64,000 nt of DNA from Candidatus Poriferihabitaceae bacterium (GCA_965203265.1 CBDBBV010000002.1:1810773-1874772), one strand, 5' to 3'. Counted from the first letter of the stretch, positions 1,534 to 36,046 are shown. Numbers and translations are program-made. The notes: generated by a model not told the origin, from the sequence alone.

Positions 1534-2853
1534 ATGAAAACAACGCAACCCAATTCACTTCGCCGCCTGACCATCGCCACCGTCCTGCTGACACTGACGC
1601 TGGCAGCGCCCAGCGTCGGTCGCGGCGACGATCTGTGGGACATCTACCAAATCGCGCTGGAGCACGACGCCACCTACCGCGCCGCCAGCCACGAATACGA
1701 AGGCGCCAAACTGCGCCTGCCGTTGGCCAAAGCCGCGCTCAACCCGTCCCTCGCCTTGACCGGCTCGGCCGGCTGGGCACGCAGCGACTCCACCGGCAGT
1801 TCGGTTACCGACGACGAAAGTCAGCTCGACCTGAACGCGACCCTGCCGCTCTACGATCCCACCCTGAGAAGGGAAGTCGATCAGGCCGAATTCGAGGTGG
1901 AGCGCGCTCGCGTCCAATTCGAGCAATCTCGCAACGAACTCATCCTGCGAGTGGCCGATCGCTATTTTCAGCTGCTAGCGGCGCGCGCCAACGCGGATGT
2001 GGCGCGGCGGCAGAAAGTAGCCATTCAACGGCAGCTGGATCTCGCCTCGGAACGCCTCAACGTCGGCTTGGGCACTCGCACCGATCTGTACGACGCCGAG
2101 GCGCGCTTACAGCAGGCGGTCGCCGACGAGATTCAAGCGAACAACGCCATCGACAATGCGGTACAGGCGCTCAAACAGGTCATCGGCACCACCCCCGAGG
2201 CGTTGACGCCCCTCGACAAGGATGCGCCGTTGCAACCGCCCGTTCCGAACTCGGCGGAGGTCTGGGTCGAACGAGCGCTCACCCACAATCTGGCGTTGCG
2301 GGCGGCCGACTTCGATCTGCAAATCGCCGACGCCGAAATCGAAAAACAAAATGCCGCGCGCTGGCCCACCATCGGCCTGAGCGCCAACCAACGGCGGCGA
2401 AACAGCACCGACGGGGTAGTCAATTCCACCACCTTCGGCGCGACCTTGAACTGGCCGCTGCGTTTGGACAAGGCAATACAGCTCAAAACCAAGCAAGCCG
2501 CATTGCAATACAACGCCGCCGAGCAATCCAGAGAATCTCTCAAACGGCAGGTGGAAGCCGACACCATCTCGGCCTACCTAGCGGTGGTCAGCGGCATCAG
2601 TCAGGTAACCGCCCTATCCGAGGCGGTACGCGCGGGCGCCAACGCGGTGCAGGCAAAGGACGAAGGCTTTCGCGCCGGCCTGACCACCAATCTGGATGTA
2701 CTCGACGCCCAACGGGATCTGGCGAGATCACGCACGGATTATCTGAGCGCGCGCTATGCCTTTATTTTGTCGGTGCTGCGTTTGGAGCAGGCGGTGGGGG
2801 ATTTGGATGAGGGGGATGTGAAGCGGGTCAATGGTTGGTTGGTGGAGAAATAA
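1534..2853 (+). CDS. tolC: TolC-family outer membrane efflux channel
   Basis: 439 aa with a signal peptide (LTIATVLLTLTLAAPSVG). The mature N-terminus DLWDIYQIALEHDATYRAA is typical of TolC, and the protein shows the two-repeat OEP architecture. Confidence 0.85.
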   Translation: MKTTQPNSLRRLTIATVLLTLTLAAPSVGRGDDLWDIYQIALEHDATYRAASHEYEGAKLRLPLAKAALNPSLALTGSAGWARSDSTGSSVTDDESQLDLNATLPLYDPTLRREVDQAEFEVERARVQFEQSRNELILRVADRYFQLLAARANADVARRQKVAIQRQLDLASERLNVGLGTRTDLYDAEARLQQAVADEIQANNAIDNAVQALKQVIGTTPEALTPLDKDAPLQPPVPNSAEVWVERALTHNLALRAADFDLQIADAEIEKQNAARWPTIGLSANQRRRNSTDGVVNSTTFGATLNWPLRLDKAIQLKTKQAALQYNAAEQSRESLKRQVEADTISAYLAVVSGISQVTALSEAVRAGANAVQAKDEGFRAGLTTNLDVLDAQRDLARSRTDYLSARYAFILSVLRLEQAVGDLDEGDVKRVNGWLVEK

Positions 2854-2882
2854 TCCGCCAAATCGATTTTCCGAACCACACC

Positions 2883-3254
2883 ATGGCCGCCATACCCGAT
2901 TTTACCAATGCCGAAATCGCCGCCGTGCGCGGGATGTTGGTTCAGTGTTGCCGTCGGGATGTGTTGATTCATCTTGCCGATGGCGAATTTTCCCTTGAAG
3001 ACGATGGCGCGGTCGGCTGCCCGACTGTGTATTGGAATGAGCGGGGCGCCAATTTCATCGTCTTCAAATGTGCGGCGGATCGCTACCGCGCGCGGTTTTT
3101 CTATACGCCGCACGAGCACTTCGGCAGTGGAATCGGCGAGTGCGACGATCCCGGCGAATGCGTGCGCGCGGTGCTGCAGGCCCAAGCGGAGCATGAGCGC
3201 GCGAGCGAGCGGGACGCCGAATCGCGGCGGGTGACTGCCCGAACCCATCCATGA
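2883..3254 (+). CDS. hypothetical protein
   Basis: This is the in-frame ATG (MAAIPDFTNAEIAAVRG...) inside track ORF 2835..3254. It lies between tolC and pfp on the same strand. No family recognised. Confidence 0.45.
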   Translation: MAAIPDFTNAEIAAVRGMLVQCCRRDVLIHLADGEFSLEDDGAVGCPTVYWNERGANFIVFKCAADRYRARFFYTPHEHFGSGIGECDDPGECVRAVLQAQAEHERASERDAESRRVTARTHP

Positions 3255-4516
3255 GCGGCAAGCGAAACGCCTTCTACGCCCAGTCCGGCGGCGTTACCTC
3301 GGTGATCAACGCCAGCGCCGCCGGAGTGATCGAAACGGCGCGGCGGCATCGGCGGCGCATCGGCGCACTCTACGCCGGGCGAGACGGCATCATCGGCGCC
3401 CTCACCGAGAGCTTGATCGACACCACCCAAGAAAGCACCGCGACCATCCGCAAACTGCGCCATACACCGGCCGGCGCCTTCGGCTCGTGCCGCTACAAGT
3501 TGCGCAGTTTGGAGGACAGTCGGCGCGAGTACGAGCGCCTGATCGAGGTGTTTTCGGCGCACGACATCGGCTATTTCCTGTACAACGGCGGCGGCGACTC
3601 GGCGGACACCTGCCTCAAGATCTCCCAACTGTCGCGCAGCATGGGCTACCCGCTGCAGGCGATTCACATCCCCAAGACCGTGGATAACGATCTGGCGGTA
3701 ACCGACAATTGTCCCGGATTCGGCTCGGTGGCGAAGTACATCGCCGTTTCCACTCGGGAGGCCAGTTTCGATGTGGCTTCCATGGCGCGCACTTCCACTC
3801 GGGTGTTCGTGCTCGAGGTCATGGGCCGCCACGCCGGATGGATCGCGGCGGCGGGCGCCATGGCGTCGGACGATCTCGTCAAGATTCCGGTGATCGTGTT
3901 GTTCCCTGAGATTCCGTTCGATCGCGCAAAATTTCTGGCGGAGGTGGAGCGCAAGGTGCAAACCCACGGCTATGTCTCGGTGGTGGTGTCCGAAGGGGTG
4001 CGCCACGCGGACGGCGGCTTCCTCTCCGAGCAGGGCTTGGTGGACGCCTTCGGCCACGCCCAGCTGGGCGGAGCGGCGCCGGTGGTGGCGCAGATGGTGA
4101 AGGCGGATCTGGGCTACAAGTATCACTGGGCGGTGGCGGATTATCTACAAAGATCGGCGCGGCATATCGCCTCGGCAACCGATGTGGAGCAGGCATTCGC
4201 GGTCGGGCAAGCGGCGGTGGAAATGGCCCTGGCCGGCGACAATGCGGTGATGCCGGCCATCGTGCGCGTGGGCAATCGCCCGTATCGCTGGAAGATCGCC
4301 GCCGCCGATCTGGCGGAGGTGGCCAATGTGGAGAAAAAGATGCCGCGCGATTTCATCAGCCAAGATGGTTTCGGCATCACCCGAAAATGCCGGGCGTATC
4401 TCGCGCCGCTCATGGCGGGCGAGGATTATCCGCCGTATCGCAATGGGCTGCCGGATTATGCGCGGTTGAAGAATGTGCCGGTGGTTAGGAAACTTGAGAC
4501 GGAGTTTGCGTTGTGA
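3251..4516 (+). CDS. pfp: 6-phosphofructokinase, probably pyrophosphate-dependent
   Basis: 421 aa with PFK motifs FYAQSGGVTSVINAS and PKTVDNDL. GGGDSADT has Asp where ATP-dependent PFKs have Gly (GGDGS). A membrane pyrophosphatase gene lies nearby. Confidence 0.8.
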   Translation: MSGKRNAFYAQSGGVTSVINASAAGVIETARRHRRRIGALYAGRDGIIGALTESLIDTTQESTATIRKLRHTPAGAFGSCRYKLRSLEDSRREYERLIEVFSAHDIGYFLYNGGGDSADTCLKISQLSRSMGYPLQAIHIPKTVDNDLAVTDNCPGFGSVAKYIAVSTREASFDVASMARTSTRVFVLEVMGRHAGWIAAAGAMASDDLVKIPVIVLFPEIPFDRAKFLAEVERKVQTHGYVSVVVSEGVRHADGGFLSEQGLVDAFGHAQLGGAAPVVAQMVKADLGYKYHWAVADYLQRSARHIASATDVEQAFAVGQAAVEMALAGDNAVMPAIVRVGNRPYRWKIAAADLAEVANVEKKMPRDFISQDGFGITRKCRAYLAPLMAGEDYPPYRNGLPDYARLKNVPVVRKLETEFAL

Positions 4517-4708: not shown

Positions 4709-6058
4709 TTAAGAAAGTTCTTTGACTTTCTGCAAAAAAGATTCTATCGCTTTTATTGTTTCCTGCACGATTTGTCTTCCAAGTTCTTTCCCCTGTTTTT
4801 CATCTGTCAGTTGTTGTACAAAATTTTCATCTTCATAGCGGAAATCATTATATTTGCAGCTCCCAAAATCTTTTGTGAGCAACCAGTACTTATTTTTACC
4901 CATACCTTCAATTTCGAGCGATACTTTACGATATTTCTGGTAAGGCTTATCCAAATCATCATATTTATCAATCCATTTTCTATTATCGGCACTCAGTTTA
5001 CTTCCATAACCATAACCACAATCATATTCTTCCTCTTCTTTTCTTATTTCTTTTCCCTCGAGAAGGGAAAAATTTAGCTGCACAGTCTGACACTCATTTT
5101 TGAAAAGTATTAACACAATAACATTTATTCCATCTCCAGCAAGAATTTTCCAACCAATTATCGACTCTTCCTTCTCGTTCCAATTTTCATACCGAACCCC
5201 AACATACTGTTTGAAAAAATCTCCATTTTCCTTAACTGCTTCACGGATATAGTTCGATAATCGATTCTTCAATTCTTTTTGAAAAAACTCAATGAAATTC
5301 TCCAAACAGGGAACCAGTTTGAAGTTTCCGTTCTTGAAAAAAGGATTGTTTTTCATAGAAAATTCCTCCAAATGAGTTAGATAAGTCTGACCAGTAAGTT
5401 TTTTCAGTAACGATTGATACTGAAACAAAATTCCCTTGATATGTGAAATGTCTGCTTCTTCTTTCTCCTTCATGCATATCGCTAACCATTTGATAATATG
5501 ATCCTTGTATGAAACCCGTAAAACTTTTTCCTTTTCAAGCCCTTCTCCAAGCATATATTCACTCGGCTCTCGTCCATCAAGCGTAAGATAAATTATCGCT
5601 ATATTTTCATCTTTATAGTTCTTTTTGGCATAGGAATAATATTTTCCAATCTGCCGTTCTTGTTCCCTTGCACCTATTTTGTTCTCAATCACAACGAATT
5701 TGTCAGCGTTTTTAATCAAAATATCTATAAACCCATCACCTGTATACGACTCTTTGGTTACTCTGAACTTAGCAAGTTCGGTTTCAGAAAATTCCCAAGT
5801 GAATTGACTCGCGTGGGTTCTCTGCAACCTCTCGAAAAATAGCCGCAAGAAAACCGTGCCTTGGATATGCGATCCATCTGGGTTCAACAAATCGGTCAAC
5901 AGGGCCGAATGCGTTTTCTCTTCATCTCTCTCCCTATCCAAAATCGAAAATATATTGAAATGCTCGCCCGTATCCCGCGCACATTCACCATATTTTTCCT
6001 TGATCAACCTGAATTGATCAAGGAAGCCTTCCAGATCACCTGTCTGTTGAATTTCCAT
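4709..6058 (-). CDS. PD-(D/E)XK nuclease family protein, paralog B, with an uncharacterised C-terminal half
   Basis: 449 aa and AT-rich. It carries the N-terminal block FNIFSIL...HSALLTDLLNP.GSH.QG and the catalytic D...ExK signature GFIDILIKNADKFVVIENK followed by QERQIGKYY. It resembles the family I recall as Pfam PDDEXK_4 (unverified). Confidence 0.75.
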   Translation of the reverse strand: MEIQQTGDLEGFLDQFRLIKEKYGECARDTGEHFNIFSILDRERDEEKTHSALLTDLLNPDGSHIQGTVFLRLFFERLQRTHASQFTWEFSETELAKFRVTKESYTGDGFIDILIKNADKFVVIENKIGAREQERQIGKYYSYAKKNYKDENIAIIYLTLDGREPSEYMLGEGLEKEKVLRVSYKDHIIKWLAICMKEKEEADISHIKGILFQYQSLLKKLTGQTYLTHLEEFSMKNNPFFKNGNFKLVPCLENFIEFFQKELKNRLSNYIREAVKENGDFFKQYVGVRYENWNEKEESIIGWKILAGDGINVIVLILFKNECQTVQLNFSLLEGKEIRKEEEEYDCGYGYGSKLSADNRKWIDKYDDLDKPYQKYRKVSLEIEGMGKNKYWLLTKDFGSCKYNDFRYEDENFVQQLTDEKQGKELGRQIVQETIKAIESFLQKVKELS

Positions 6059-6112: not shown

Positions 6113-7384
6113 TTATTGGACTTGTTCCAGAAATGATTTTATCGATCTTGTTACTGTGGCAACGATTTCTTTCCCAAACTTCCTTCCCCTCTCTGCATTT
6201 TGCAATTTTCCTGCTTCATACTCCCAATTACGCGAGCTCATTGTGGCCCCTCTAACCGAATCATTTTTCATGCCTTCAACGTTAAGTGCCGCCTTAAGAT
6301 ATTTCTGGCAAGTTGCATTTGGGTACTTATCCATGCGGTGTCCCGATATATTACCATCATCTGTCTCGATATTGTCTCCCTCATAAAGGTAAAGAGAAAA
6401 ATAACATTTATCCTTCCAATGATCCAACAAGGCAATCACATTTACACCATCGCTATAATCAATTTTCCATCTCCCCAATACTTCATTATCCTTCCATTTC
6501 TTCAATTCTTCTTTAGTACTTCTTACTTTAATTTTCACGTATTTGTTGAAAAAATCTCTCTCATTTTCCGAATCGATCGCTTCGCGAATATATTGCCAAC
6601 ACCGAGTGGGCAATTCCTTCTTGAAAGATGCGATAGATTTCTCCAAAGCACCAACCAATTTATGGTTGTCGTTCTTGAAAAAAAGATCGTTGGTTTCCAT
6701 AATAAATTCCTCACGATAAGTTTGGTCGGTAAGTGCTTTCAGTAACGATTGATACTGAAACAAGGTTTCTCTGATATGTGGAATGCGCACCACTTCTTTC
6801 AAACAGCCATCCAACCACTTGATAATATGATCTCGATATGAAACCCGCAAAACTTCGTCTTCTCCAAGTTTTGTGCCGCGGGTATATTCACTGGCTTCAT
6901 CCCCCTCAAGCGTGAGGTAGATTACCACTATATTCTCATCCGCATAATTTTCTTTGGCATAATCATAATATCGACCAAGTTGCCGTTCCTGATCCCCCGC
7001 ATAAATCTTGTTCTCAATCACAACGCATTTGTCGTTTTTTTCGATGAGAATATCTATGCGCCCACCGCCCACATCGGCCTCTGCAATTACACTGAACTGA
7101 GCAAGTTCGATTTCGGACAATTCCCATTTGACTCGACTCTCGCAATCTTCCCGCAACATCTCGAAAAACAACCGCAAGAAAACCGTGCCCTGATCGTGCG
7201 ACCCTTTCGGATTCAACAAATCGGCAAGTAGCGCAGAATGCCGTATCTCCCTGCTCTCCATGCCCAAGATCGAAAACACATTGAAATTCTCACCCGTAAC
7301 CCGCGCCACAGCATCATATTTTTCCTTGATCAACCTGAATTGACGAAGGAAATTTTCCATCTTTTCAACCTGTTCGATTTCCAT
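6113..7384 (-). CDS. PD-(D/E)XK nuclease family protein, paralog A, with an uncharacterised C-terminal half
   Basis: Start taken at MEIEQVEKMENFLRQF (ATG 7384) inside track ORF 6113..7468. It has the same motifs as paralog B (FNVFSIL, RIDILIEKNDKCVVIENK, QERQLGRYY). The ATG lies 7 nt after the methyltransferase stop. Confidence 0.75.
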   Translation of the reverse strand: MEIEQVEKMENFLRQFRLIKEKYDAVARVTGENFNVFSILGMESREIRHSALLADLLNPKGSHDQGTVFLRLFFEMLREDCESRVKWELSEIELAQFSVIAEADVGGGRIDILIEKNDKCVVIENKIYAGDQERQLGRYYDYAKENYADENIVVIYLTLEGDEASEYTRGTKLGEDEVLRVSYRDHIIKWLDGCLKEVVRIPHIRETLFQYQSLLKALTDQTYREEFIMETNDLFFKNDNHKLVGALEKSIASFKKELPTRCWQYIREAIDSENERDFFNKYVKIKVRSTKEELKKWKDNEVLGRWKIDYSDGVNVIALLDHWKDKCYFSLYLYEGDNIETDDGNISGHRMDKYPNATCQKYLKAALNVEGMKNDSVRGATMSSRNWEYEAGKLQNAERGRKFGKEIVATVTRSIKSFLEQVQ

Positions 7385-28235: not shown

Positions 28236-29003
28236 TCAGTATTTGAAGCCGATGTGGAGGGCGACTATTCCGCCGCTCAGATTGTGTATGCGGATGTCTT
28301 CGAATCCGGCTTGCGCCATCATGTTTTTCAGAGTTTGTTGATCCGGATGCTTGCGGATGGACTCGACCAGATAGCGGTAACTGTGCTCATCGCCGACCAC
28401 CCGCTTGCCGAGGGCGGGGATGACGGCGAAGGACCAGCGATCGTATAGTTTTGCCAGCAGAGGCAATAGCGGCTTGGAGAATTCCAGCAGCAGCAGGCGG
28501 CCGCCGGGTCGGATTACCCGATACAACGAGGCGAGGGCGTCCTGCTTGCGGGTTACATTGCGCAGGCCGAAGGAGATGGCGGCGCAGTGGAAGCAGTCGG
28601 CGGCGAAACTCGGTTTTTCGGCGTCGCAGAGGGCGTAGCCGATGTTGCCGATGAGGCCGGCGTCGATCAGGTTGCGCCGGCCCTGAGCCAACATGGCCGC
28701 ATTGATGTCGGTGAACGCCACCAAGCCGCCCGCGCCGACCTGCCGAGCAAAGTGCTTGGCCATGTCGCCACTACCGGCGGCCACATCCAGAGCCAGATCG
28801 CCGGGGCGCAAGGCACTCTGCGAGGCGGCAAAGCGCTTCCACAGGCGATGGACGCCGAAGCTCATCAGGTCGTTCATCAGGTCGTAGCGACCGGCGACCG
28901 AGCGGAACACATCGGCGACCATGCCGGCCTTGTCGTCGGCGTCCACCGAACGAAAGCCAAAATGGGTGGTGCGCCCCCGTTCCTGACCGGCCTGCTCCGC
29001 CAT
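28236..29003 (-). CDS. ubiE: demethylmenaquinone/ubiquinone C-methyltransferase
   Basis: Start taken at MAEQAGQERGRTTHFGFRSV (29003). FRSVAGRYDLMNDLMSFGVHRLWKR and LDVAAGSGD are canonical UbiE blocks. Confidence 0.9.
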   Translation of the reverse strand: MAEQAGQERGRTTHFGFRSVDADDKAGMVADVFRSVAGRYDLMNDLMSFGVHRLWKRFAASQSALRPGDLALDVAAGSGDMAKHFARQVGAGGLVAFTDINAAMLAQGRRNLIDAGLIGNIGYALCDAEKPSFAADCFHCAAISFGLRNVTRKQDALASLYRVIRPGGRLLLLEFSKPLLPLLAKLYDRWSFAVIPALGKRVVGDEHSYRYLVESIRKHPDQQTLKNMMAQAGFEDIRIHNLSGGIVALHIGFKY

Positions 29004-29019
29004 GACCACCACCCCGCCG

Positions 29020-29385
29020 TCAGGAATCCGCCGCGCGCTCGTGCCCGGCCTCGCGCAGCTGTTCGAGATAACGCCGCCAGTTCTCCGCCTGATTCCTGCC
29101 GAGGGAATGGAGCGTATCCCAAGAATAAATGCCGGTATCGTGGCCGTCATCGAACACCGGCTTGATGGCGTAATTGCCGATCGGCTCGATTTTGTCGATA
29201 TTGACCTCCTCCTTGCCGACCTGCAACACGGCTTGACCGGGGCCATGCCCTTGCACCTCGGCCGAGGGAGAATGCACCCGCAGGTATTCGCAAGTCATCT
29301 CGTAGGATGTGCCGTCGTCGAAGGATACCGTGAGGATTCTGGCTCTGCGGTTGAGGTTGATTTCGGTGGGGGTGGGTTTGCTCAT
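29020..29385 (-). CDS. DUF971 (gamma-butyrobetaine hydroxylase N-terminal-like) protein
   Basis: Start taken at MSKPTPTEINL (29385) within track ORF 29020..29547. FDDGTSYEMTCEYLRVHSPSAEV and FDDGHDTGIYSWDTL are typical of the family. Confidence 0.7.
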   Translation of the reverse strand: MSKPTPTEINLNRRARILTVSFDDGTSYEMTCEYLRVHSPSAEVQGHGPGQAVLQVGKEEVNIDKIEPIGNYAIKPVFDDGHDTGIYSWDTLHSLGRNQAENWRRYLEQLREAGHERAADS

Positions 29386-29568
29386 TGGTTTGGCCGGTTG
29401 TGTCGATTTTACAGATTTTCCGATAGTTGTTGTATTTCCGCTTGCGTGTGGTGCGGCTCTTGCATTTCTATGGCTTTCCACGCGCTTATGTAGGAAATTT
29501 TGTCGATGAGTTTTCCTAGTTGTTTGGCGGTTAATTTTGGGAATCATACCGATAACTTGACAAGGAAT

Positions 29569-29733
29569 TCACTGTTTTTTCTCTTTGATTTTGACTTTTC
29601 CATCCTTACCTACTCGCATAACGAACTTCCTTTCCAGACCTTTATTCGTAGGTACGGGTTCTCTCCCGTGCTCTGCTTTGCCCATGCCCAGCAACGCCTT
29701 CGCCGCTTTATCTAGTTTCTTTCTACTAGTCAT
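29569..29733 (-). CDS. 54-aa basic small ORF downstream of methyltransferase-HNH gene 1 (sORF1)
   Basis: My own translation, since it falls below the track length cutoff: MTSRKKLDKAAKALLGMGKAEHGREPVPTNKGLERKFVMRVGKDGKVKIKEKKQ. Its ATG shares one nt with the upstream TGA. The first 31 codons are duplicated at 31021-31113. Confidence 0.45.
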   Translation of the reverse strand: MTSRKKLDKAAKALLGMGKAEHGREPVPTNKGLERKFVMRVGKDGKVKIKEKKQ

Positions 29734-30956
29734 CACACTAACATTTGCAAGCGCGTTTTCAAATAGTCCATACCTCTATCGCCCTTTATACGATTACATG
29801 AACCACACAGCAATTGAAGGTTCTCCAAGTGATCGGTTCCGCCCTTCTTGCGTGATATTATATGATCTACTTCCAAATTCCTATGATTGAACTCTGTATT
29901 ACATCCAGCGCATTTCCCGTATTGCTCACCAAATAGAAACTTCTTGTTCTCTGGCGAATTATACGCCCGCAACTTACCTAAATCAGTGCGTTTCGGTATA
30001 TCCGTCCTATGCGTTATATCCCTGAATATACCCTGCGCGTCCTTTATACGGCTAACTACTAATTCTGAAGCCTTACTCGATATATCTATCCCTACCCAGT
30101 TTCGTTGTAAATAATCAGCCGCAACGCAAGTAGTCGCGCATCCGCAAAATGGATCCAGTACTACATCGCCTTCGTTGCTTGACGCTCTGATTATTCGTGA
30201 TAGAAGTTTCAAAGGCTTCTGCGTAGGGTAACCTGTACGCTCTTTTGATAAAGAATTCAAATAAGGTATATCCCACCAATCATTACATATCATCCCTTCA
30301 TCAGGATAATATGTTCTCTTTTTACCGGCATCAATCCGAATCCTACATCTGCGACCTTTATCATCTACTTGCTTATAATGACTATCCAAGTATTTCTGAC
30401 TAACGGGTATGCGATAATCTCCCCAATAAAACTTATCCGATTTAGTATAAAGAAATATCAAATCATGCTTCTTGGCGAAAAACTTCTTCGCTCTACCAGA
30501 AGTAGAATAGCACCATACAATCTCGTTTCTGAAATACTTGCGTCCGAAAACAGCGTCCATTACCAATTTCAAATAATGACTCATGGTCGGATCACAATGC
30601 AAATAGATTGAACCAGTAGGTTTCAACAATCTTTTCATCTCTAATATCCTTGCCGCCATATAAACCAAATACGATTTATCGCTCTTGGTCATTGCCGCTA
30701 ACAACACCCGATAAAGAACCGGATGTTTGTTCTCTATAAGATTTATCCATTCAACATCTACCTCCGACAACGACCATGTATCCTTGAACTCAGCACCAGC
30801 CGCTTTACTACCTATTGGCGCTGCGTAATTAGCATTTGAATTAAATGGCGGATCCAAATATATCAAGTCAACAGATTCACTATTCATCCCTCGCATAATG
30901 TACAAACAATCTCCCGTCCATATCGTCTTGTTCGCCCAGTTTTGTTTCTTACTCAT
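29733..30956 (-). CDS. beta-class DNA amino-methyltransferase fused to a C-terminal HNH nuclease (copy 1)
   Basis: Start taken at MSKKQNW (30956) within track ORF 29733..30989; 407 aa. It has DPPF (motif IV), GYPTQKP (motif X), VLDPFCGCATT (motif I), then CAGC...EVDHIISRKKGGTDHLENLQLLCGSCNRIKG (HNH). AT-rich. Confidence 0.85.
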   Translation of the reverse strand: MSKKQNWANKTIWTGDCLYIMRGMNSESVDLIYLDPPFNSNANYAAPIGSKAAGAEFKDTWSLSEVDVEWINLIENKHPVLYRVLLAAMTKSDKSYLVYMAARILEMKRLLKPTGSIYLHCDPTMSHYLKLVMDAVFGRKYFRNEIVWCYSTSGRAKKFFAKKHDLIFLYTKSDKFYWGDYRIPVSQKYLDSHYKQVDDKGRRCRIRIDAGKKRTYYPDEGMICNDWWDIPYLNSLSKERTGYPTQKPLKLLSRIIRASSNEGDVVLDPFCGCATTCVAADYLQRNWVGIDISSKASELVVSRIKDAQGIFRDITHRTDIPKRTDLGKLRAYNSPENKKFLFGEQYGKCAGCNTEFNHRNLEVDHIISRKKGGTDHLENLQLLCGSCNRIKGDRGMDYLKTRLQMLV

Positions 30957-31113
30957 TTCTTGCTCCCCCCTCCGCCAACCACCCGGCAACCTGCTCGGCG
31001 TAATAGGTCAATACCAGATCTTTATTCGTAGGTACGGGTTCGCTCCTGTGCTCTGCTTTGCCCATGCCCAGCAACGCCTTCGCCGCTTTATCTAGTTTCT
31101 TTCTACTAGTCAT
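30949..31113 (-). CDS. chimeric 54-aa small ORF: 5' part of sORF fused to a copy of the hemB 3' end (sORF2)
   Basis: My own translation: [54 protein letters not shown]. The residues after position 34 repeat the HemB C-terminus. It overlaps both neighbouring genes. Whether it is expressed is unknown. Confidence 0.3.
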   Translation of the reverse strand: MTSRKKLDKAAKALLGMGKAEHRSEPVPTNKDLVLTYYAEQVAGWLAEGGARNE

Positions 31114-32291
31114 CACACTAACATTTGCAAGCGTGTTTTCAAATAGTCCATACCTCTATCGCCCTTTATACGATTACATGAACCGCATAACAACTGTAGG
31201 TTTTCCAAGTGATCGGTTCCGCCTTTCTTTCGTGAAATTATATGATCTACTTCTAAATTTCGTGATTCGAAATGCGTCCCGCAACCCGCGCAATTCCCGT
31301 CTTGCTCTCCATATAGTATCTTTCGATTTGCTGGAGAATTGTAGGCCGGAAGATTTCCGAGATCGGTTCTCTTCGGTATATCCGTCCTATGCGTTATATC
31401 CCTGAATATACCCTGCGCGTCCTTTATACGGCTAACTACTAATTCCGAAGCCTTATTCGATATATCTATCCCTACCCAATTACGCTGTAAATAATCCGCC
31501 GCAACGCAAGTAGTTGCGCATCCGCAAAATGGATCCAGTACTACATCGCCTTCATTGCTTGACGCCTTGATCACCCTCCCTAACAACGCCAATGGCTTTT
31601 GTGTGGGATAACCCGTGCGTTCTTTATCCATAGTATTCAACGCCGCCAATGTTATTACATCATCCGGCGTCTTACCTCTAGGCGGTTCTTTCCCTTGTTT
31701 TTTGTAACGCCAAGTCGTCATACCACTCTCATATGGAATCAGTATATCGTCCCTTCTAAAAACACCTTTACCGGAAATTACATACCAAAGCAATATATCA
31801 TGCGACTTAGCCCATTGATATTTACCGCGAGAAGCATTTTTATAGTACCAAACAACTTCGTTCCTGAAATTTTTGCGTCCAAAAATAGCATCCATCACTA
31901 ATTTCAAGTAATGACTCATAGTCGGATCACAATGCAAATAGATTGAACCAGTAGGTTTCAACAACCTTTTCATCTCTAATATCCTTGCCGCCATATAAAC
32001 CAAATACGATTTATCGCTCTTGGCTATTGCCGCTAACAACACACGATAAAGGGATGGATATTTGTTCTCAATAAGATTTATCCATTCAACATCTACCTCA
32101 TCCAGCGTCCAAGTATCCTTGAACTCCGCACCAGCCGCTTTACTACCTATCGGTGCGGCATAATTCGCGTTTGAATTGAACGGCGGATCCAAATATATCA
32201 AATCAACAGATTCCGAATTCATCCCCCGCATAATATACAAACAATCCCCCGTCCATATAGTCTTGTTTGCCCAGTTTTGTTTCTTGCTCAT
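31113..32291 (-). CDS. beta-class DNA amino-methyltransferase fused to a C-terminal HNH nuclease (copy 2)
   Basis: Start taken at MSKKQNW (32291) within track ORF 31113..32336; 392 aa. It has the same motif set as copy 1 but a different central block. Its ATG lies 1 nt after the hemB stop. Confidence 0.85.
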   Translation of the reverse strand: MSKKQNWANKTIWTGDCLYIMRGMNSESVDLIYLDPPFNSNANYAAPIGSKAAGAEFKDTWTLDEVDVEWINLIENKYPSLYRVLLAAIAKSDKSYLVYMAARILEMKRLLKPTGSIYLHCDPTMSHYLKLVMDAIFGRKNFRNEVVWYYKNASRGKYQWAKSHDILLWYVISGKGVFRRDDILIPYESGMTTWRYKKQGKEPPRGKTPDDVITLAALNTMDKERTGYPTQKPLALLGRVIKASSNEGDVVLDPFCGCATTCVAADYLQRNWVGIDISNKASELVVSRIKDAQGIFRDITHRTDIPKRTDLGNLPAYNSPANRKILYGEQDGNCAGCGTHFESRNLEVDHIISRKKGGTDHLENLQLLCGSCNRIKGDRGMDYLKTRLQMLV

Positions 32292-32292
32292 T

Positions 32293-33330
<1,038 letters not shown>

Positions 33331-34179
33331 CTATTTTCCCGGCACTGCTTCCGCCGGGGCGGCTGAGGTGGCCGAGACGGCTGAGGCGGCCGGCGGCGGT
33401 TTTCCGGCGGGTTTGCGCGGCGGCGGGGACGCGCTTTCCGAGGAAGGGGTTATGCGGCTGATCTGCCCACCGGCGATGATGGTGTGGGTTTCCTCGTCGA
33501 GGGTTTGCGCGGCGGTCTCCAGCGTGTCCATTTCCAAAGGGCGCATTTCCAGATCGACGATGGCGCAAAACTTCTGCCGGATTTCCTCGGCCTCCCCCAC
33601 GGCCAACACCGTGCGCAACTTGTGCTGCGCCTTGTAATAGGCCAGCAACGGCGCGATTTGCTCGCGATAGGCTCCGACCTCGGCCACCGCCGCGCGGAGA
33701 TCGCCGCTTGCGGCGGCCAGTTCGCCGCCGCAAACGTCGCACTCGTCGGCGATTTTCGGCGGGGCGCAGCGGAGATGGTAGGCGGCGCCGCATTGGGTGC
33801 ATTGCAAGTGGCCGCCGAGGTGTTCTTCCAGCGTGTCGTCGTCGAGTTCGACATGGATCGCAATCTGCAGGGTGCGGCCGAACATGCCGAGCAGCGTGTC
33901 GAGCGCCTGCGCCTGCGGGATGTTGCCGGGGAAGCCGTCTATGATGAATCCGCGCCTGCAATCGCGCGCGCGCAAACGCTCATCCAACAGGGCGATGACG
34001 GCCTCGTCGCTAGCCGCCGCCACCTGAGGCGGGTGCGAGTCGCCCGCTCCCCCATTCCCGTCCGCCGCCGCTCGCAACAGGATATGCGGTGATATGTGCG
34101 GCACCCGATACCGCGCCGCCAGTGATTTCGCCTGCACTTCCTTGCCGGAAGCCGACGCGCCGAGGATGGCAATTCGCAT
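33331..34179 (-). CDS. adenylate kinase-like protein with atypical P-loop and a Pro/Ala-rich C-terminal extension
   Basis: 282 aa. The core is AK-like (FIIDGFPGNIPQAQAL) with a Cys4 lid (CTQC...CDVC). The P-loop reads GASASGKEV instead of GxPGxGKGT, and there are about 65 extra C-terminal residues. Confidence 0.6.
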   Translation of the reverse strand: MRIAILGASASGKEVQAKSLAARYRVPHISPHILLRAAADGNGGAGDSHPPQVAAASDEAVIALLDERLRARDCRRGFIIDGFPGNIPQAQALDTLLGMFGRTLQIAIHVELDDDTLEEHLGGHLQCTQCGAAYHLRCAPPKIADECDVCGGELAAASGDLRAAVAEVGAYREQIAPLLAYYKAQHKLRTVLAVGEAEEIRQKFCAIVDLEMRPLEMDTLETAAQTLDEETHTIIAGGQISRITPSSESASPPPRKPAGKPPPAASAVSATSAAPAEAVPGK

Positions 34180-34456
34180 GGGTCGTGCGGGCTTCCCCGC
34201 GGAAAAATTTGAACCGCAACCCTACTCGTTGTGGGCAATCAGGTCAACCGCCTGCACGATGCCGATACATTCGGGCTGTGGGTGGTTTTCGGCGATTCGG
34301 GATTGGTGGAGGCGCGCCGCCGGCCCTTTTCCGGGCAAGATTTGTGGACGGGGATGGGGGATCGGGCGGCGTTTTGGCTTGATGTGCTCTCGGGGCGATA
34401 GCCGAGGATTTGGAATCGTGGTTTTTTCTTGGGTCTGTCCGGTTCGGCTTCGATTG

Positions 34457-35197
34457 CTATGTTTTGCGCGCGAGAAATCGGCAACGAACATAATCTGCAA
34501 ACCACTCCCCGTTTTCATCTTTCAATTTTACGGCGGCCCTATCCGCAACATGGGCAATGAAATCGGCACGCTCGCGAACTGGTATATCTTTCAGAAAAGA
34601 ATCAGCAAAAGTTTCCAACCATCCGACAATACCCGTAGGTAATTTGGTCGGGCGATCAAAGACTTCGAATTCAACGATGTGAAAACCGTGTTGTTCCAAT
34701 TTGGATCGATATGCCGAACCGCTCGGAAAGTACCATGGATTGTAATCATCGCCATTCAGGCTCAACTCGTTCAACTGCGCATAAATCGCGGAAACCACTG
34801 CGCCAACATTGTTTTCGGCACCGAATTCGGCACAAAATCGCCCGCCTGCTTTGATTCTGGCGTACACATTTCGAATTACCGCATCGGCATCTTTCATCCA
34901 ATGCAGCGCGGCATTGGAAAACACCGCATCGAATTCATCATCGATGGATATGGATTGGGCATCGACAACCCGCGCATCAATGCCTTTATCCCTTGCCGCC
35001 GCAACCATTTCCCCGCTGGTGTCTATGCCGATCACCGAACAACCAATGGAGGCAATTTTTGCCGTCAACCGGCCATCGCCACAGCCGACATCCAGAATTT
35101 TTTCTTCGGGGACAGGAGAGAGAAGATCGAGCAACTTCTCGCCCAATTCGGCAACGTAACCGGCGTGCCTGCCATATTTGTCAACTTCCCACTGCAT
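34457..35197 (-). CDS. class I SAM-dependent methyltransferase
   Basis: 246 aa with motif I ILDVGCGDGRLT. GC is visibly lower than in the flanking genes. Confidence 0.75.
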   Translation of the reverse strand: MQWEVDKYGRHAGYVAELGEKLLDLLSPVPEEKILDVGCGDGRLTAKIASIGCSVIGIDTSGEMVAAARDKGIDARVVDAQSISIDDEFDAVFSNAALHWMKDADAVIRNVYARIKAGGRFCAEFGAENNVGAVVSAIYAQLNELSLNGDDYNPWYFPSGSAYRSKLEQHGFHIVEFEVFDRPTKLPTGIVGWLETFADSFLKDIPVRERADFIAHVADRAAVKLKDENGEWFADYVRCRFLARKT

Positions 35198-35209
35198 TGC
35201 CGGCCAGCT

Positions 35210-36046
35210 TTATCGAAGGCCGTGGGCAAGGGCGCTCCAGTCGAATTTCGGGTCGCCGCCGGCGAGGAACCAGGGGTTGAGGATGTCCGCCTTGTTGTAG
35301 CGCAACGGCACTCCGCACAGGGTGGTCATGCTGCCTCCCGCCGATTCCAGTACGCAATGCGCCGCCGCGGTGTCCCATTCCGAGGTGGGGCCCAATCTCG
35401 GATAGATGTCCGCCAACCCCTCCGCCACCAAGCAGATTTTCAGGGAGCTGCCCATGCCGGTAACTTCCACCTCGTCGGCTTCGTCGGCAAGACGCGCGCG
35501 GTAGGCTTCGACCGCGGCACCGGCGTGGGAGCGGCTGGACACCATGATGGCCTTCGCGCGCTCGAATTTCTTCACGCGGATGGGCGTGGCCTTCCCATCC
35601 GCGCCGGATTTGAACGCCCCCACTCCGGCAGCAGCATAGTGGCTGACGCCCTTGGCCGGTGCGTGCACCACGCCGAGCACCGCGCGACCGCCCTCGATGA
35701 GCGCGATGTTGACGGTGAATTCATCGTTGCGCTTGACGAATTCCCGCGTGCCGTCCAGCGGATCCACCAACCAAAATCTCCGCCACGCGCGCCGCTGGGC
35801 GAAAGTGCTCGCATCGGATTCCTCGGACAACAGCGGAGTCTGCGGGTCGAGGCGCTGCAGCCGCTCGTGGATGAGGCGGTGGGCGCGGCGATCGGCTTGG
35901 GTGAGCGGCGAACCGTCCCGCTTGTGCTCGACTTGGAACGATCCCGCATACACATCGAGAATTTCCCGGCCGGCGGCGATGGCAATATCGAGTACCTGCC
36001 GCAGCTGGGCGGTCGGGGATGGCGCGGTTTCGGGGTTTCGGTTCAT
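35210..36046 (-). CDS. cysQ: 3'(2'),5'-bisphosphate nucleotidase
   Basis: Start taken at MNRNPETAP (36046) within track ORF 35210..36262. Inositol monophosphatase-family motifs WLVDPLDGTREF and GSSLKICLVAEG are present. Confidence 0.85.
   Translation of the reverse strand: MNRNPETAPSPTAQLRQVLDIAIAAGREILDVYAGSFQVEHKRDGSPLTQADRRAHRLIHERLQRLDPQTPLLSEESDASTFAQRRAWRRFWLVDPLDGTREFVKRNDEFTVNIALIEGGRAVLGVVHAPAKGVSHYAAAGVGAFKSGADGKATPIRVKKFERAKAIMVSSRSHAGAAVEAYRARLADEADEVEVTGMGSSLKICLVAEGLADIYPRLGPTSEWDTAAAHCVLESAGGSMTTLCGVPLRYNKADILNPWFLAGGDPKFDWSALAHGLR

Follow-up and report, generated by a model that had tools for sequence, protein, structure and literature searches.

Introduction

Type IIC, IIG, and IIL restriction-modification enzymes are proteins of ~900-1100 aa. 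Canonical Type IIC and IIG enzymes are made up of an N-terminal PD-(D/E)XK nuclease and a gamma-class methylase, and some Type IIC, IIG, and IIL members need no separate methylase (PMC4081073). BtgZI is a listed exception, with an alpha-class methylase and a C-terminal PD-(D/Q)XK nuclease; a beta-class methylase combined with an HNH nuclease is absent from the same Type II review (PMC4081073). The window described here, a 64,000-nt stretch of DNA from Candidatus Poriferihabitaceae bacterium (GCA_965203265.1 CBDBBV010000002.1:1810773-1874772), contains this combination twice. Two adjacent genes on the minus strand, gene A and gene B, each encode a beta-class DNA methyltransferase with a C-terminal HNH domain, and they lie directly behind the porphobilinogen synthase gene hemB. 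All positions are counted from the first letter of the window.

Target-recognition domain (TRD) variants are found among the Type III Mod methylases, with the Haemophilus and Neisseria modA alleles as examples. KpnI, MnlI, Hpy99I, and PacI are Type II restriction endonucleases of the HNH type. For the IS1595 family, Siguier and colleagues reportedly described, in 2009, elements that carry passenger genes, along with mobile insertion cassettes lacking a transposase. Work by Furuta, Abe, and Kobayashi (2010) covers transposon-like restriction-modification units as well as inserted units of low GC content that are flanked by direct repeats of >30 bp from the 3' end of a host gene (PMC2853133). 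Insertion with long target duplication is described there for restriction-modification units, including 46-bp repeats that overlap gene 3' ends (PMC2853133).

On balance, genes A and B each seem to encode a self-contained, single-polypeptide restriction-modification-type enzyme. The fusion gene is mobile cargo. In different bacteria, IS1595-family transposons repeatedly contain it, in some cases next to the transposase and in others as the only gene between the inverted repeats. New in this analysis are the IS1595 link, a surviving transposon end in the window, a hotspot at hemB that takes alternative cargo, and the stacking of old alleles. A first-pass annotation of the window had proposed a self-contained modify-and-cut module, either a defense system or a homing-like selfish element, and its claims are taken up where the results bear on them.

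Architecture of genes A and B

Gene A (31113..32291, minus strand) encodes 392 aa and has an ATG start with the N-terminus MSKKQNW. Gene B (29733..30956, minus strand) encodes 407 aa and is 77% identical to A. Both open reading frames (ORFs) agree with the first-pass annotation in position, strand, and length. Longer ORF starts at ATG 32336 and TTG 30989 are unlikely because the N-termini of the family begin at M..NWANKT. The AT-rich patch reported for the two genes is real, as GC is 0.37-0.46 across ~29500-32250 versus 0.62-0.69 in the flanks.

Both proteins match the Pfam family N6_N4_Mtase (PF01555; E 3e-43 for A and 3e-48 for B), and the two genes score 165 and 149 bits against a cut-off of 26.7. 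Each contains DPPF (residues 35-38), followed by a variable middle, GYPTQKP (motif X), and VLDPFCGCATT (motif I). This order is the circular permutation of the beta class, as had been proposed. The methylated base is probably N6-adenine, as the DPPF motif favors m6A. The AlphaFold2 model of A has a pLDDT of 79.9 and a pTM of 0.79. Its fold matches M.BceJIV, RsrI, and MboIIA over the methyltransferase part only (E ~1e-18; target-normalised TM-scores 0.75-0.84). The nearest solved structures, i.e., these three and CcrM, span the methylase alone.

The nuclease and methylase domains are located within a single polypeptide in A and in B. The HNH domain (Pfam HNH, PF01844) covers ~residues 323-383 of A (31143..31325, minus strand; E 9e-15) and, in B, window positions 29763..29945 (minus strand; E 2.5e-13). 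Scores of the two genes are 50.4 and 55 bits against a cut-off of 21.4, and HNH_5 is above threshold too. By profile search, the domain is closest to the type found in IscB, Cas9/Cas9d, and group II intron maturases.

The variable target-recognition regions were delimited by nucleotide block comparison. They span ~residues 147-222 of A (31626..31853, minus strand) and ~residues 147-237 of B (30246..30518, minus strand). The TRD of A has 40-58% nucleotide identity to those of B and of the allele in sister contig L176, and the flanking blocks have 83-100%. The two copies were already known to have different middles. These are genuine alternative recognition domains, of which the sister strain holds a third, and to this must be added a second block of A/B divergence, directly 5' of the HNH core, with 65% nucleotide identity.

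A comparison of A with B gives a dS of 0.45-0.84. dN/dS is ~0.1 for the framework at the N-terminus, for the motif X-I block, and for the HNH core, where it is 0.04-0.10. Both catalytic modules look intact and under purifying selection. Given this dS, A and B are old alleles and not a fresh duplication; recent in-situ tandem duplication was rejected on the same value. A relative 99% identical to A (P0001) is found at the same locus in the related contig L007, and P0003 is identical to gene B. The TRD type of gene A also occurs in P0004, in P0009, and in copy 2 of the Spirochaetia locus L004 discussed below.

Size and distribution of the family

A protein search gave at least 8000 candidates among 5.8 billion proteins, and the best 120 were examined. 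Both Pfam domains are present in 120 of these 120 matches, which are ~375-490 aa in length, 55-99% identical to gene A, and from several phyla. Named sources among them are Acidimicrobiales and Albidovulum, and related loci come from Chloroflexi, Latescibacterota, and Spirochaetia. The sources label the proteins simply as DNA methyltransferase. A search with the linker-HNH module alone found 768 representatives at E <= 1e-10 among 1.84 billion 50% clusters. The module is usually C-terminal in the 150 best matches; many of those are fragments, and the search is a rough estimate of family size for this reason. In the phage and plasmid collections there are three records each with a single match covering at least 80% of the query, the cover taken to mark a full-length candidate. 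The family looks mainly chromosomal.

An alignment of 54 members reveals a near-rigid framework, composed of approximately the first 145 and the last 170 residues, around hypervariable middles of 64-170 aa. Residues C334, C337, D349, H350, N364, C369, C372, and N373 are invariant in 54/54 aligned homologues. The first-pass annotation had assigned the C-terminal module to HNH with its catalytic and zinc positions present, and this holds. Single-linkage clustering of the TRDs is too coarse for counting specificity types. Synonymous sites are saturated in comparisons between phyla. High protein identity therefore reflects constraint and not very recent transfer, and recent cross-phylum transfer was rejected as the cause of the ~65% identity. 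The fusion is thus no peculiarity of one genome; the family is large and conserved, and apparently it has not been characterized by experiment.

Several of the closest homologues, which belong to different phyla, come from samples (SB0662 bins, NGUY21, ENGE20) that read, by name only, as sponge microbiome. The nearest named HemB relatives are Candidatus Spongiihabitans. Judged from sample names only, this would suggest an element shared within one habitat.

Replacement of the nuclease domain

The Spirochaetia locus L004 (4498-8712 of the metagenome-assembled genome contig OY843583.1) is composed of three tandem copies of the beta-methylase framework. The copies have identical first 150 aa and three different middles. 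Each has a C-terminal T5orf172/MUG113 domain, a member of the GIY-YIG superfamily, in the position of the HNH. A literature search found no description of methylase-T5orf172 fusions. In L004 one nuclease fold stands in for another at the same position, and the catalytic residues of the HNH are invariant. Both facts argue for a function that includes the cutting or nicking of DNA, and against an HNH that is a mere zinc-ribbon DNA clamp.

These same observations make it unlikely that the proteins are orphan methyltransferases with a regulatory or protective role, in which the HNH fold would be a zinc-stabilized DNA clamp or processivity domain, comparable to the DNA-binding C-terminus of CcrM, and no restriction would occur. 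A clamp needs no catalytic Asp-His, Asn, and Asn, yet these are invariant in 54/54 homologues. The domain swapped in at L004 belongs to another nuclease superfamily and is no generic DNA binder. Hypervariable TRDs, stacked alleles, low GC, and transposon carriage also fit conflict systems better than epigenetic regulators of the housekeeping kind. The orphan explanation does draw on the closest solved relatives, M.BceJIV and CcrM, which are orphan regulators, and CcrM bears an extra C-terminal domain at the same position. It is also in line with the lack of a separate restriction partner and with a source annotation that says merely DNA methyltransferase.

Gene context and IS1595-family transposons

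Context statistics come from ~30 close loci, obtained by metagenome, viral, and protein look-ups. The settings of the fusion gene vary: it follows nrdJ (class II ribonucleotide reductase), is flanked by a hypothetical gene and a recN-like gene, or is enclosed in an IS1595 element. An all-against-all comparison of neighboring ORFs found no conserved partner gene in the ~30 loci, which agrees with the self-contained module of the first-pass annotation. The homing-like selfish element it had offered as an alternative is not supported, as the family is found in contexts as unrelated as hemB, nrdJ, a recN-like gene, and IS1595 elements rather than at a single cognate site.

A methyl-directed strand-discrimination nickase, similar to MutH or Vsr in repair and nicking the unmethylated strand at hemimethylated sites, was also weighed. 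Many HNH enzymes are nickases, and fusion to a methylase guarantees matched specificity. No linkage to a mismatch-repair gene is seen in any locus, however, and variable specificity, mobility, and stacking are unexpected for repair. This function is very unlikely.

The sole recurrent neighbor in the ~30 loci is an IS1595-family transposase with Zn_ribbon_IS1595 and DDE_Tnp_IS1595 domains. By tblastn, it adjoins the fusion gene in 8 of the ~30, namely L002, L003, L005, L012 (with L013 and L014), L028, L031, L036, and L095. It also adjoins five distant relatives that are 35-40% identical (L059, L062, L067, L167, and L174). In L012 and L003, transposase and fusion gene are co-oriented and 5-24 nt apart. 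Flanking inverted-repeat pairs were sought in the window and in all loci and were found in L005, L012, and L095 only. The terminal inverted repeats that enclose transposase and fusion gene are 25 nt and 100% complementary in L012, 23 nt and 96% complementary in L005, and 26 nt and 96% complementary in L095. Perfect 8-bp target duplications are present in L012 (CAGAGGAG) and L005 (TACCTGCC). L095 has a further, inner pair of repeats (4932-4954 and 6294-6316) with nothing but the fusion gene between them, a 1385-bp cassette that lacks a transposase. Because of these repeats, duplications, and the inner cassette, the fusion gene is a bona fide IS1595-type transposon passenger in part of the family.

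L095 (3738-6538 of an IMG/VR contig) has a nested structure. The outer repeats enclose the transposase and the 5' stub of a methylase gene that is broken by the inner pair. At the right, between the inner and the outer end, there is a lysine-rich ORF of 55 aa. Target duplications are found at neither repeat pair of L095, which suggests that the structure arose by recombination between elements.

The pairing with a transposase could mean that the fusion protein is an accessory of IS1595 transposition, either cleaving the second strand, as TnsA does for Tn7, or timing transposition through methylation of the ends. We see little chance of this. Co-orientation at 5-24 nt (L012, L003) and the persistence of the pairing in relatives 35-40% identical (L062, L067, L167) are as expected for an accessory. 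Against this, in ~70% of loci, the window included, the gene is intact and purifying selection acts on it, and no transposase is close by; hypervariable recognition domains would be senseless for fixed transposon ends. To our knowledge, most IS1595 elements have no such fusion gene.

The surviving transposon end in the window

The window retains an IS1595-type terminal inverted repeat, the right end, at 29539..29561 (minus strand; GTCAAGTTATCGGTATGATTCCC). It begins 172 nt past the gene B stop and marks the true right border of the inserted element. The repeat is identical to the right inverted repeat of L005 at 18/23 positions; it is the best match in the 64-kb window, and 1/100 random windows reaches 18. 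The L176 allele has GTCACGTTATCGGTATAATTCCC at the corresponding position. In L007, the flanks of the fusion unit and of an unrelated island are homologous from window position 29538 exactly, which places the end of the repeat right where the inserted DNA stops.

No left IS1595 end is found in the window, and the element ends at the hemB stop on that side. With the left end missing, no 8-bp target duplication is identifiable in the window. A tblastn search found no match to an IS1595 transposase anywhere in the 64 kb. The claim that the patch contains no integrase, transposase, helicase, or separate nuclease gene is likewise sustained, as none was found. The window unit, made up of fusion gene, 54-aa ORF, and right inverted repeat, is predicted to be IS1595-derived with its left end lost.

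The right border of the hotspot is a host core gene of the DUF971/GBBH-like_N type (29020..29385, minus strand; Pfam E 1.6e-30), 121 aa in L175. A mechanical ORF call adds 54 upstream codons (29386-29547) and starts at ATG 29547, inside the inverted repeat. The true start is probably ATG 29385, and the extension to 29547, which runs into the transposon end, is probably spurious.

The hemB junction, small ORFs, and expression

The left border of the variable region is the host core gene hemB (porphobilinogen synthase, ALAD; 32293..33258, minus strand; Pfam ALAD, E 4e-132). Its TGA stop occupies 32295-32293, position 32292 is a single A, and gene A starts with its ATG at 32291. Gene A is docked 1 nt behind hemB, exactly as first described. 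The final codons of hemB contain a GGAG Shine-Dalgarno sequence, 7 nt upstream of the gene A ATG.

A 54-aa lysine-rich ORF (MTSRKKLDKAAKALLGMGKAEH...; 29569..29733, minus strand) follows gene B, with its ATG overlapping the gene B stop by 1 nt (TGATG). No match to this ORF was found in Pfam, NCBIfam, or PADLOC. The frame is open in the window, in L007/L008, and in L176, with 81-94% aa identity, and dN/dS is 0.23 between the window and L176. The ORF is inside the element and belongs to the mobile unit. After gene A there is a chimeric small ORF (30949..31113, minus strand), composed of 33 codons of the 54-aa ORF and an in-frame duplicated hemB tail. Its ATG overlaps the gene A stop and its TAA overlaps the gene B ATG.

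All five reading frames from hemB onward are linked through 1-nt gaps or overlaps. A promoter and terminator scan of 29000-33500 gave matches no more frequent than chance. Because of these junctions and the absence of a promoter signal, the genes would be expressed by read-through from hemB with translational coupling. The scan is consistent with read-through and proves nothing.

The hemB-DUF971 hotspot and allele stacking

The region was compared in sister contigs whose HemB is 96-99% identical to that of the window, plus L007 (~95% nucleotide identity across the region). Four haplotypes of the hemB-DUF971 gap are observed. The window has A and B. The gap of L176 holds one fusion gene with a third recognition domain; this allele is a mosaic, with B-like N-terminal blocks and an A-like pre-HNH block. 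L175 has a 4-gene island in place of the fusion gene, and the first island gene overlaps the hemB stop (ATGA). In L007, gene A and its small ORF come first. After them, ~340 nt from the start of DUF971 are joined to the 295 nt that end hemB, and next come the island and DUF971 once more. A fully empty hemB-DUF971 site was not found among the related contigs compared. A census of hemB docking among homologues had been suggested at first pass. The hemB gap is a cargo hotspot, one that also takes an unrelated 4-gene island, and hemB is not the insertion site of the family as a whole.

The island is located at 7966-12899 of L175 and 8144-13074 of L007. Protein 1 has 424 aa, a PP-loop-like N-terminus, an SGGRSS motif, and weak matches to SspD and BrxP. 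A 638-aa HATPase_c_3 protein matches the PADLOC candidate PDC-M33A (E 7e-26). The other two proteins have 188 or 287 aa and 288 aa. The island looks like a candidate defense system, so far uncharacterized.

L178 (6012-10286) is from a species whose HemB is 81% identical. Downstream of hemB it has an IS1595 transposase, an 89-aa duplicated hemB fragment, a 187-aa protein with a weak HNH_2 match, a RadC_N-N6_N4 methylase fusion, and a D12-class methylase. As cargo lies behind hemB in this different species, the hotspot is older than the species.

In the window, the minus strand carries a repeated unit composed of the last ~53 nt of hemB, a fusion gene, and a ~100-nt tail. Direct repeat copy 1 is the native hemB end (TGACCTATTATGCC...GGGGGGAGCATGA; 32293..32345, minus strand), with host-like GC. 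Copy 2 (30958..31010, minus strand) is recognized by sequence reading as a duplicated hemB 3' end ahead of gene B. It differs from copy 1 at two places (TGA to AGA, and one T>C). The variant bases of copy 2 (TATTGACCTATTAC) are present in hemB alleles of sister strains and absent from the window's own hemB. Gene A and the first ~100 nt of tail thus stand between two ~53-nt hemB ends, the form of a long target duplication. The hemB end occurs once in L176, which has one fusion gene, and once in L175, which has the island only. Beside cargo, duplicated hemB 3' ends of three lengths are found: the window has ~53 nt, L007 has 295 nt, and L178 has the 89-aa fragment.

Because copy 2 carries sister-strain hemB variants and because A and B diverged long ago, the evidence points to a second cassette acquired from another strain, with an illegitimate join on one side. 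The second allele would have been gained by recombination, and homology-facilitated illegitimate recombination after DNA uptake would yield the long target duplication. With this duplication and the old allelic divergence, the tandem state is not a simple local duplication.

Allele stacking recurs in an unrelated genome. L022 (1-2316) has two tandem methylase-HNH genes, 8 nt apart and with different middles; the upstream copy is cut at the contig end.

An assembly artefact that joined two strain variants, each real genome having one copy, has scarcely any probability. The assemblies are metagenome-derived and single-copy haplotypes occur in L176 and L007. The junction of A to B, where the tail ending in CTGG meets TATTGACC of hemB, is non-homologous and not the shared repeat at which assemblers are prone to err. 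Both proteins are encoded on one 2.26-Mb contig, a comparable stack is present in the independent sample L007, and tandem copies are found in L022 and L004.

The duplications also bear on whether the HNH breaks DNA mainly for the spread of its own gene, by homing-like copying into alleles that lack it or by promoting long-target-duplication insertion, with the methylase shielding the carrier. Such insertions may be driven by restriction-modification units, according to a proposal from Kobayashi's group (PMC2853133). The hemB 3' end has been duplicated beside cargo three independent times, alleles are mosaic, and tandem stacking recurs, and these points count in favor of such a nuclease. The 4-gene island, however, has no fusion gene, and yet it occupies the same hotspot and is accompanied by a hemB duplication of the same kind. 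This points to general recombination, e.g., homology-facilitated illegitimate recombination, and not to the fusion nuclease. Insertion contexts differ widely among genomes, so there is no single homing site, and a short methylase-type motif occurs many times per genome. A mobility nuclease is accordingly an improbable explanation of the fusion.

The window has a 959-bp lower-GC segment (34255-35213) that is absent from L007. It holds a 246-aa class I SAM methyltransferase ORF (34457..35197, minus strand; Methyltransf_11/25, small-molecule type), which starts 12 nt past the stop of inositol monophosphatase and is thus small cargo tight behind a core gene. In L175, a TnpB/OrfB_IS605 (Cas12f-like) gene is found at 2574-3731, ~3 kb upstream of hemB.

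Proposed function

As a restriction-modification enzyme, the fusion protein would work as follows. The beta-class, probably N6-adenine, methyltransferase would find a short motif via the exchangeable central recognition domain. The same domain would direct both methylation of host sites and cutting or nicking of unmethylated DNA by the HNH. The enzyme is probably dimeric, like M.BceJIV, RsrI, and CcrM, and would pair two HNH sites. Two stacked alleles would confer two specificities. For the host the enzyme would be a defense, and for the element it would be a module of addiction or retention. The framework is rigid, the middle is hypervariable, and three alleles occur with mosaic exchange; such diversification of specificity is typical of restriction-modification. 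The modify-and-cut idea is strengthened, though unproven.

Several points weigh against this proposal and its transposon history. Cutting and protection by one and the same chain would have to be controlled, and no mechanism for this is visible in the sequence. The HNH may be a nickase, or its role may lie outside restriction. PADLOC recognizes the methylase part alone, through Type III methyltransferase profiles (E 1e-34 to 1e-36). No defense-system or equivalog model of PADLOC or NCBIfam was matched, and the hits are to generic methylase and HNH parts only. The first-pass annotation held the fusion architecture to be uncharacterized; in agreement, no paper, solved structure, or curated model was found for a beta-class methyltransferase with a C-terminal HNH, REBASE, which may hold a characterized member, being outside the coverage. 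About 70% of the sampled loci are without transposase and without inverted repeats. For the IS1595 origin of the window copy, the evidence is one end together with the family context.

A wider generalization is possible, short of probable. The beta-methylase-HNH proteins and their T5orf172/GIY-YIG cousins would form a large, unrecognized subtype of minimal (~400 aa) single-chain restriction-modification enzymes. Specificity would change via a swapped cassette of ~70-170 aa, the genes would be spread by IS1595, and the nuclease might promote the long target duplications that stack alleles.

If the enzymes both cut and methylate, they would be a new and very compact restriction-modification subtype. 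Although common among public genomes and metagenomes, the family is annotated only as 'DNA methyltransferase', and censuses of methylomes or defense systems may count its members as harmless orphan methylases. A rigid framework with a swappable recognition cassette and a small nuclease could aid the engineering of sequence-specific nickases or cutters. The locus is a worked example of transposon cargo that was then captured at a core-gene hotspot, with stacked specificities and with unrelated cargo at the same hemB-stop junction.

Comparison with known systems

Type IIC, IIG, and IIL enzymes, e.g., MmeI, BpuSI, and Eco57I, are similar to A and B in having methylase and nuclease in one chain that share a recognition module. 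Their recognition domains are swappable between alleles, as in the family of A and B. The difference from Types IIC and IIG is in size and composition. A and B are proteins of ~400 aa in which the methylase is beta-class and comes first, and the nuclease is of the HNH (beta-beta-alpha-metal) type and comes last; they are known from sequence alone.

Type III Mod proteins are also beta-class methylases, with conserved terminal thirds and a hypervariable central domain that is exchanged. Unlike in Type III systems, no Res helicase-nuclease partner is found in the window patch or in related loci. A and B differ from Mod in carrying a nuclease within the same chain, and they show no repeat tract of the phase-variable kind.

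M.BceJIV (GTWWAC, m6A) and CcrM are the best sequence and fold matches for the methylase of A and B (E 4e-21; target TM-score ~0.8). They are dimeric chromosomal regulators without a nuclease domain, and they are neither hypervariable nor transposon-borne.

The HNH domains of Type II enzymes, IscB, Cas9, and group II intron proteins share DH...N...N and two CxxC pairs with A and B. Those nucleases are separate or RNA-guided proteins, and none is known to be fused behind a DNA methylase.

IS1595 elements resemble the family loci in their Zn-ribbon and DDE_Tnp_IS1595 transposase, GGGGATTAT... inverted repeats, 8-bp duplications, and a passenger between the ends. A literature search found no report of a methylase-HNH fusion as an IS1595 passenger. 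The window copy differs from these elements in having the right end only and no transposase.

Finally, the window resembles insertions with long target duplication in its hemB repeats of >30 bp, its low GC, and allele substitution at one locus. It differs from them in that the cargo is a single fused gene and in that the locus already held a related allele, which led to a stack of two.

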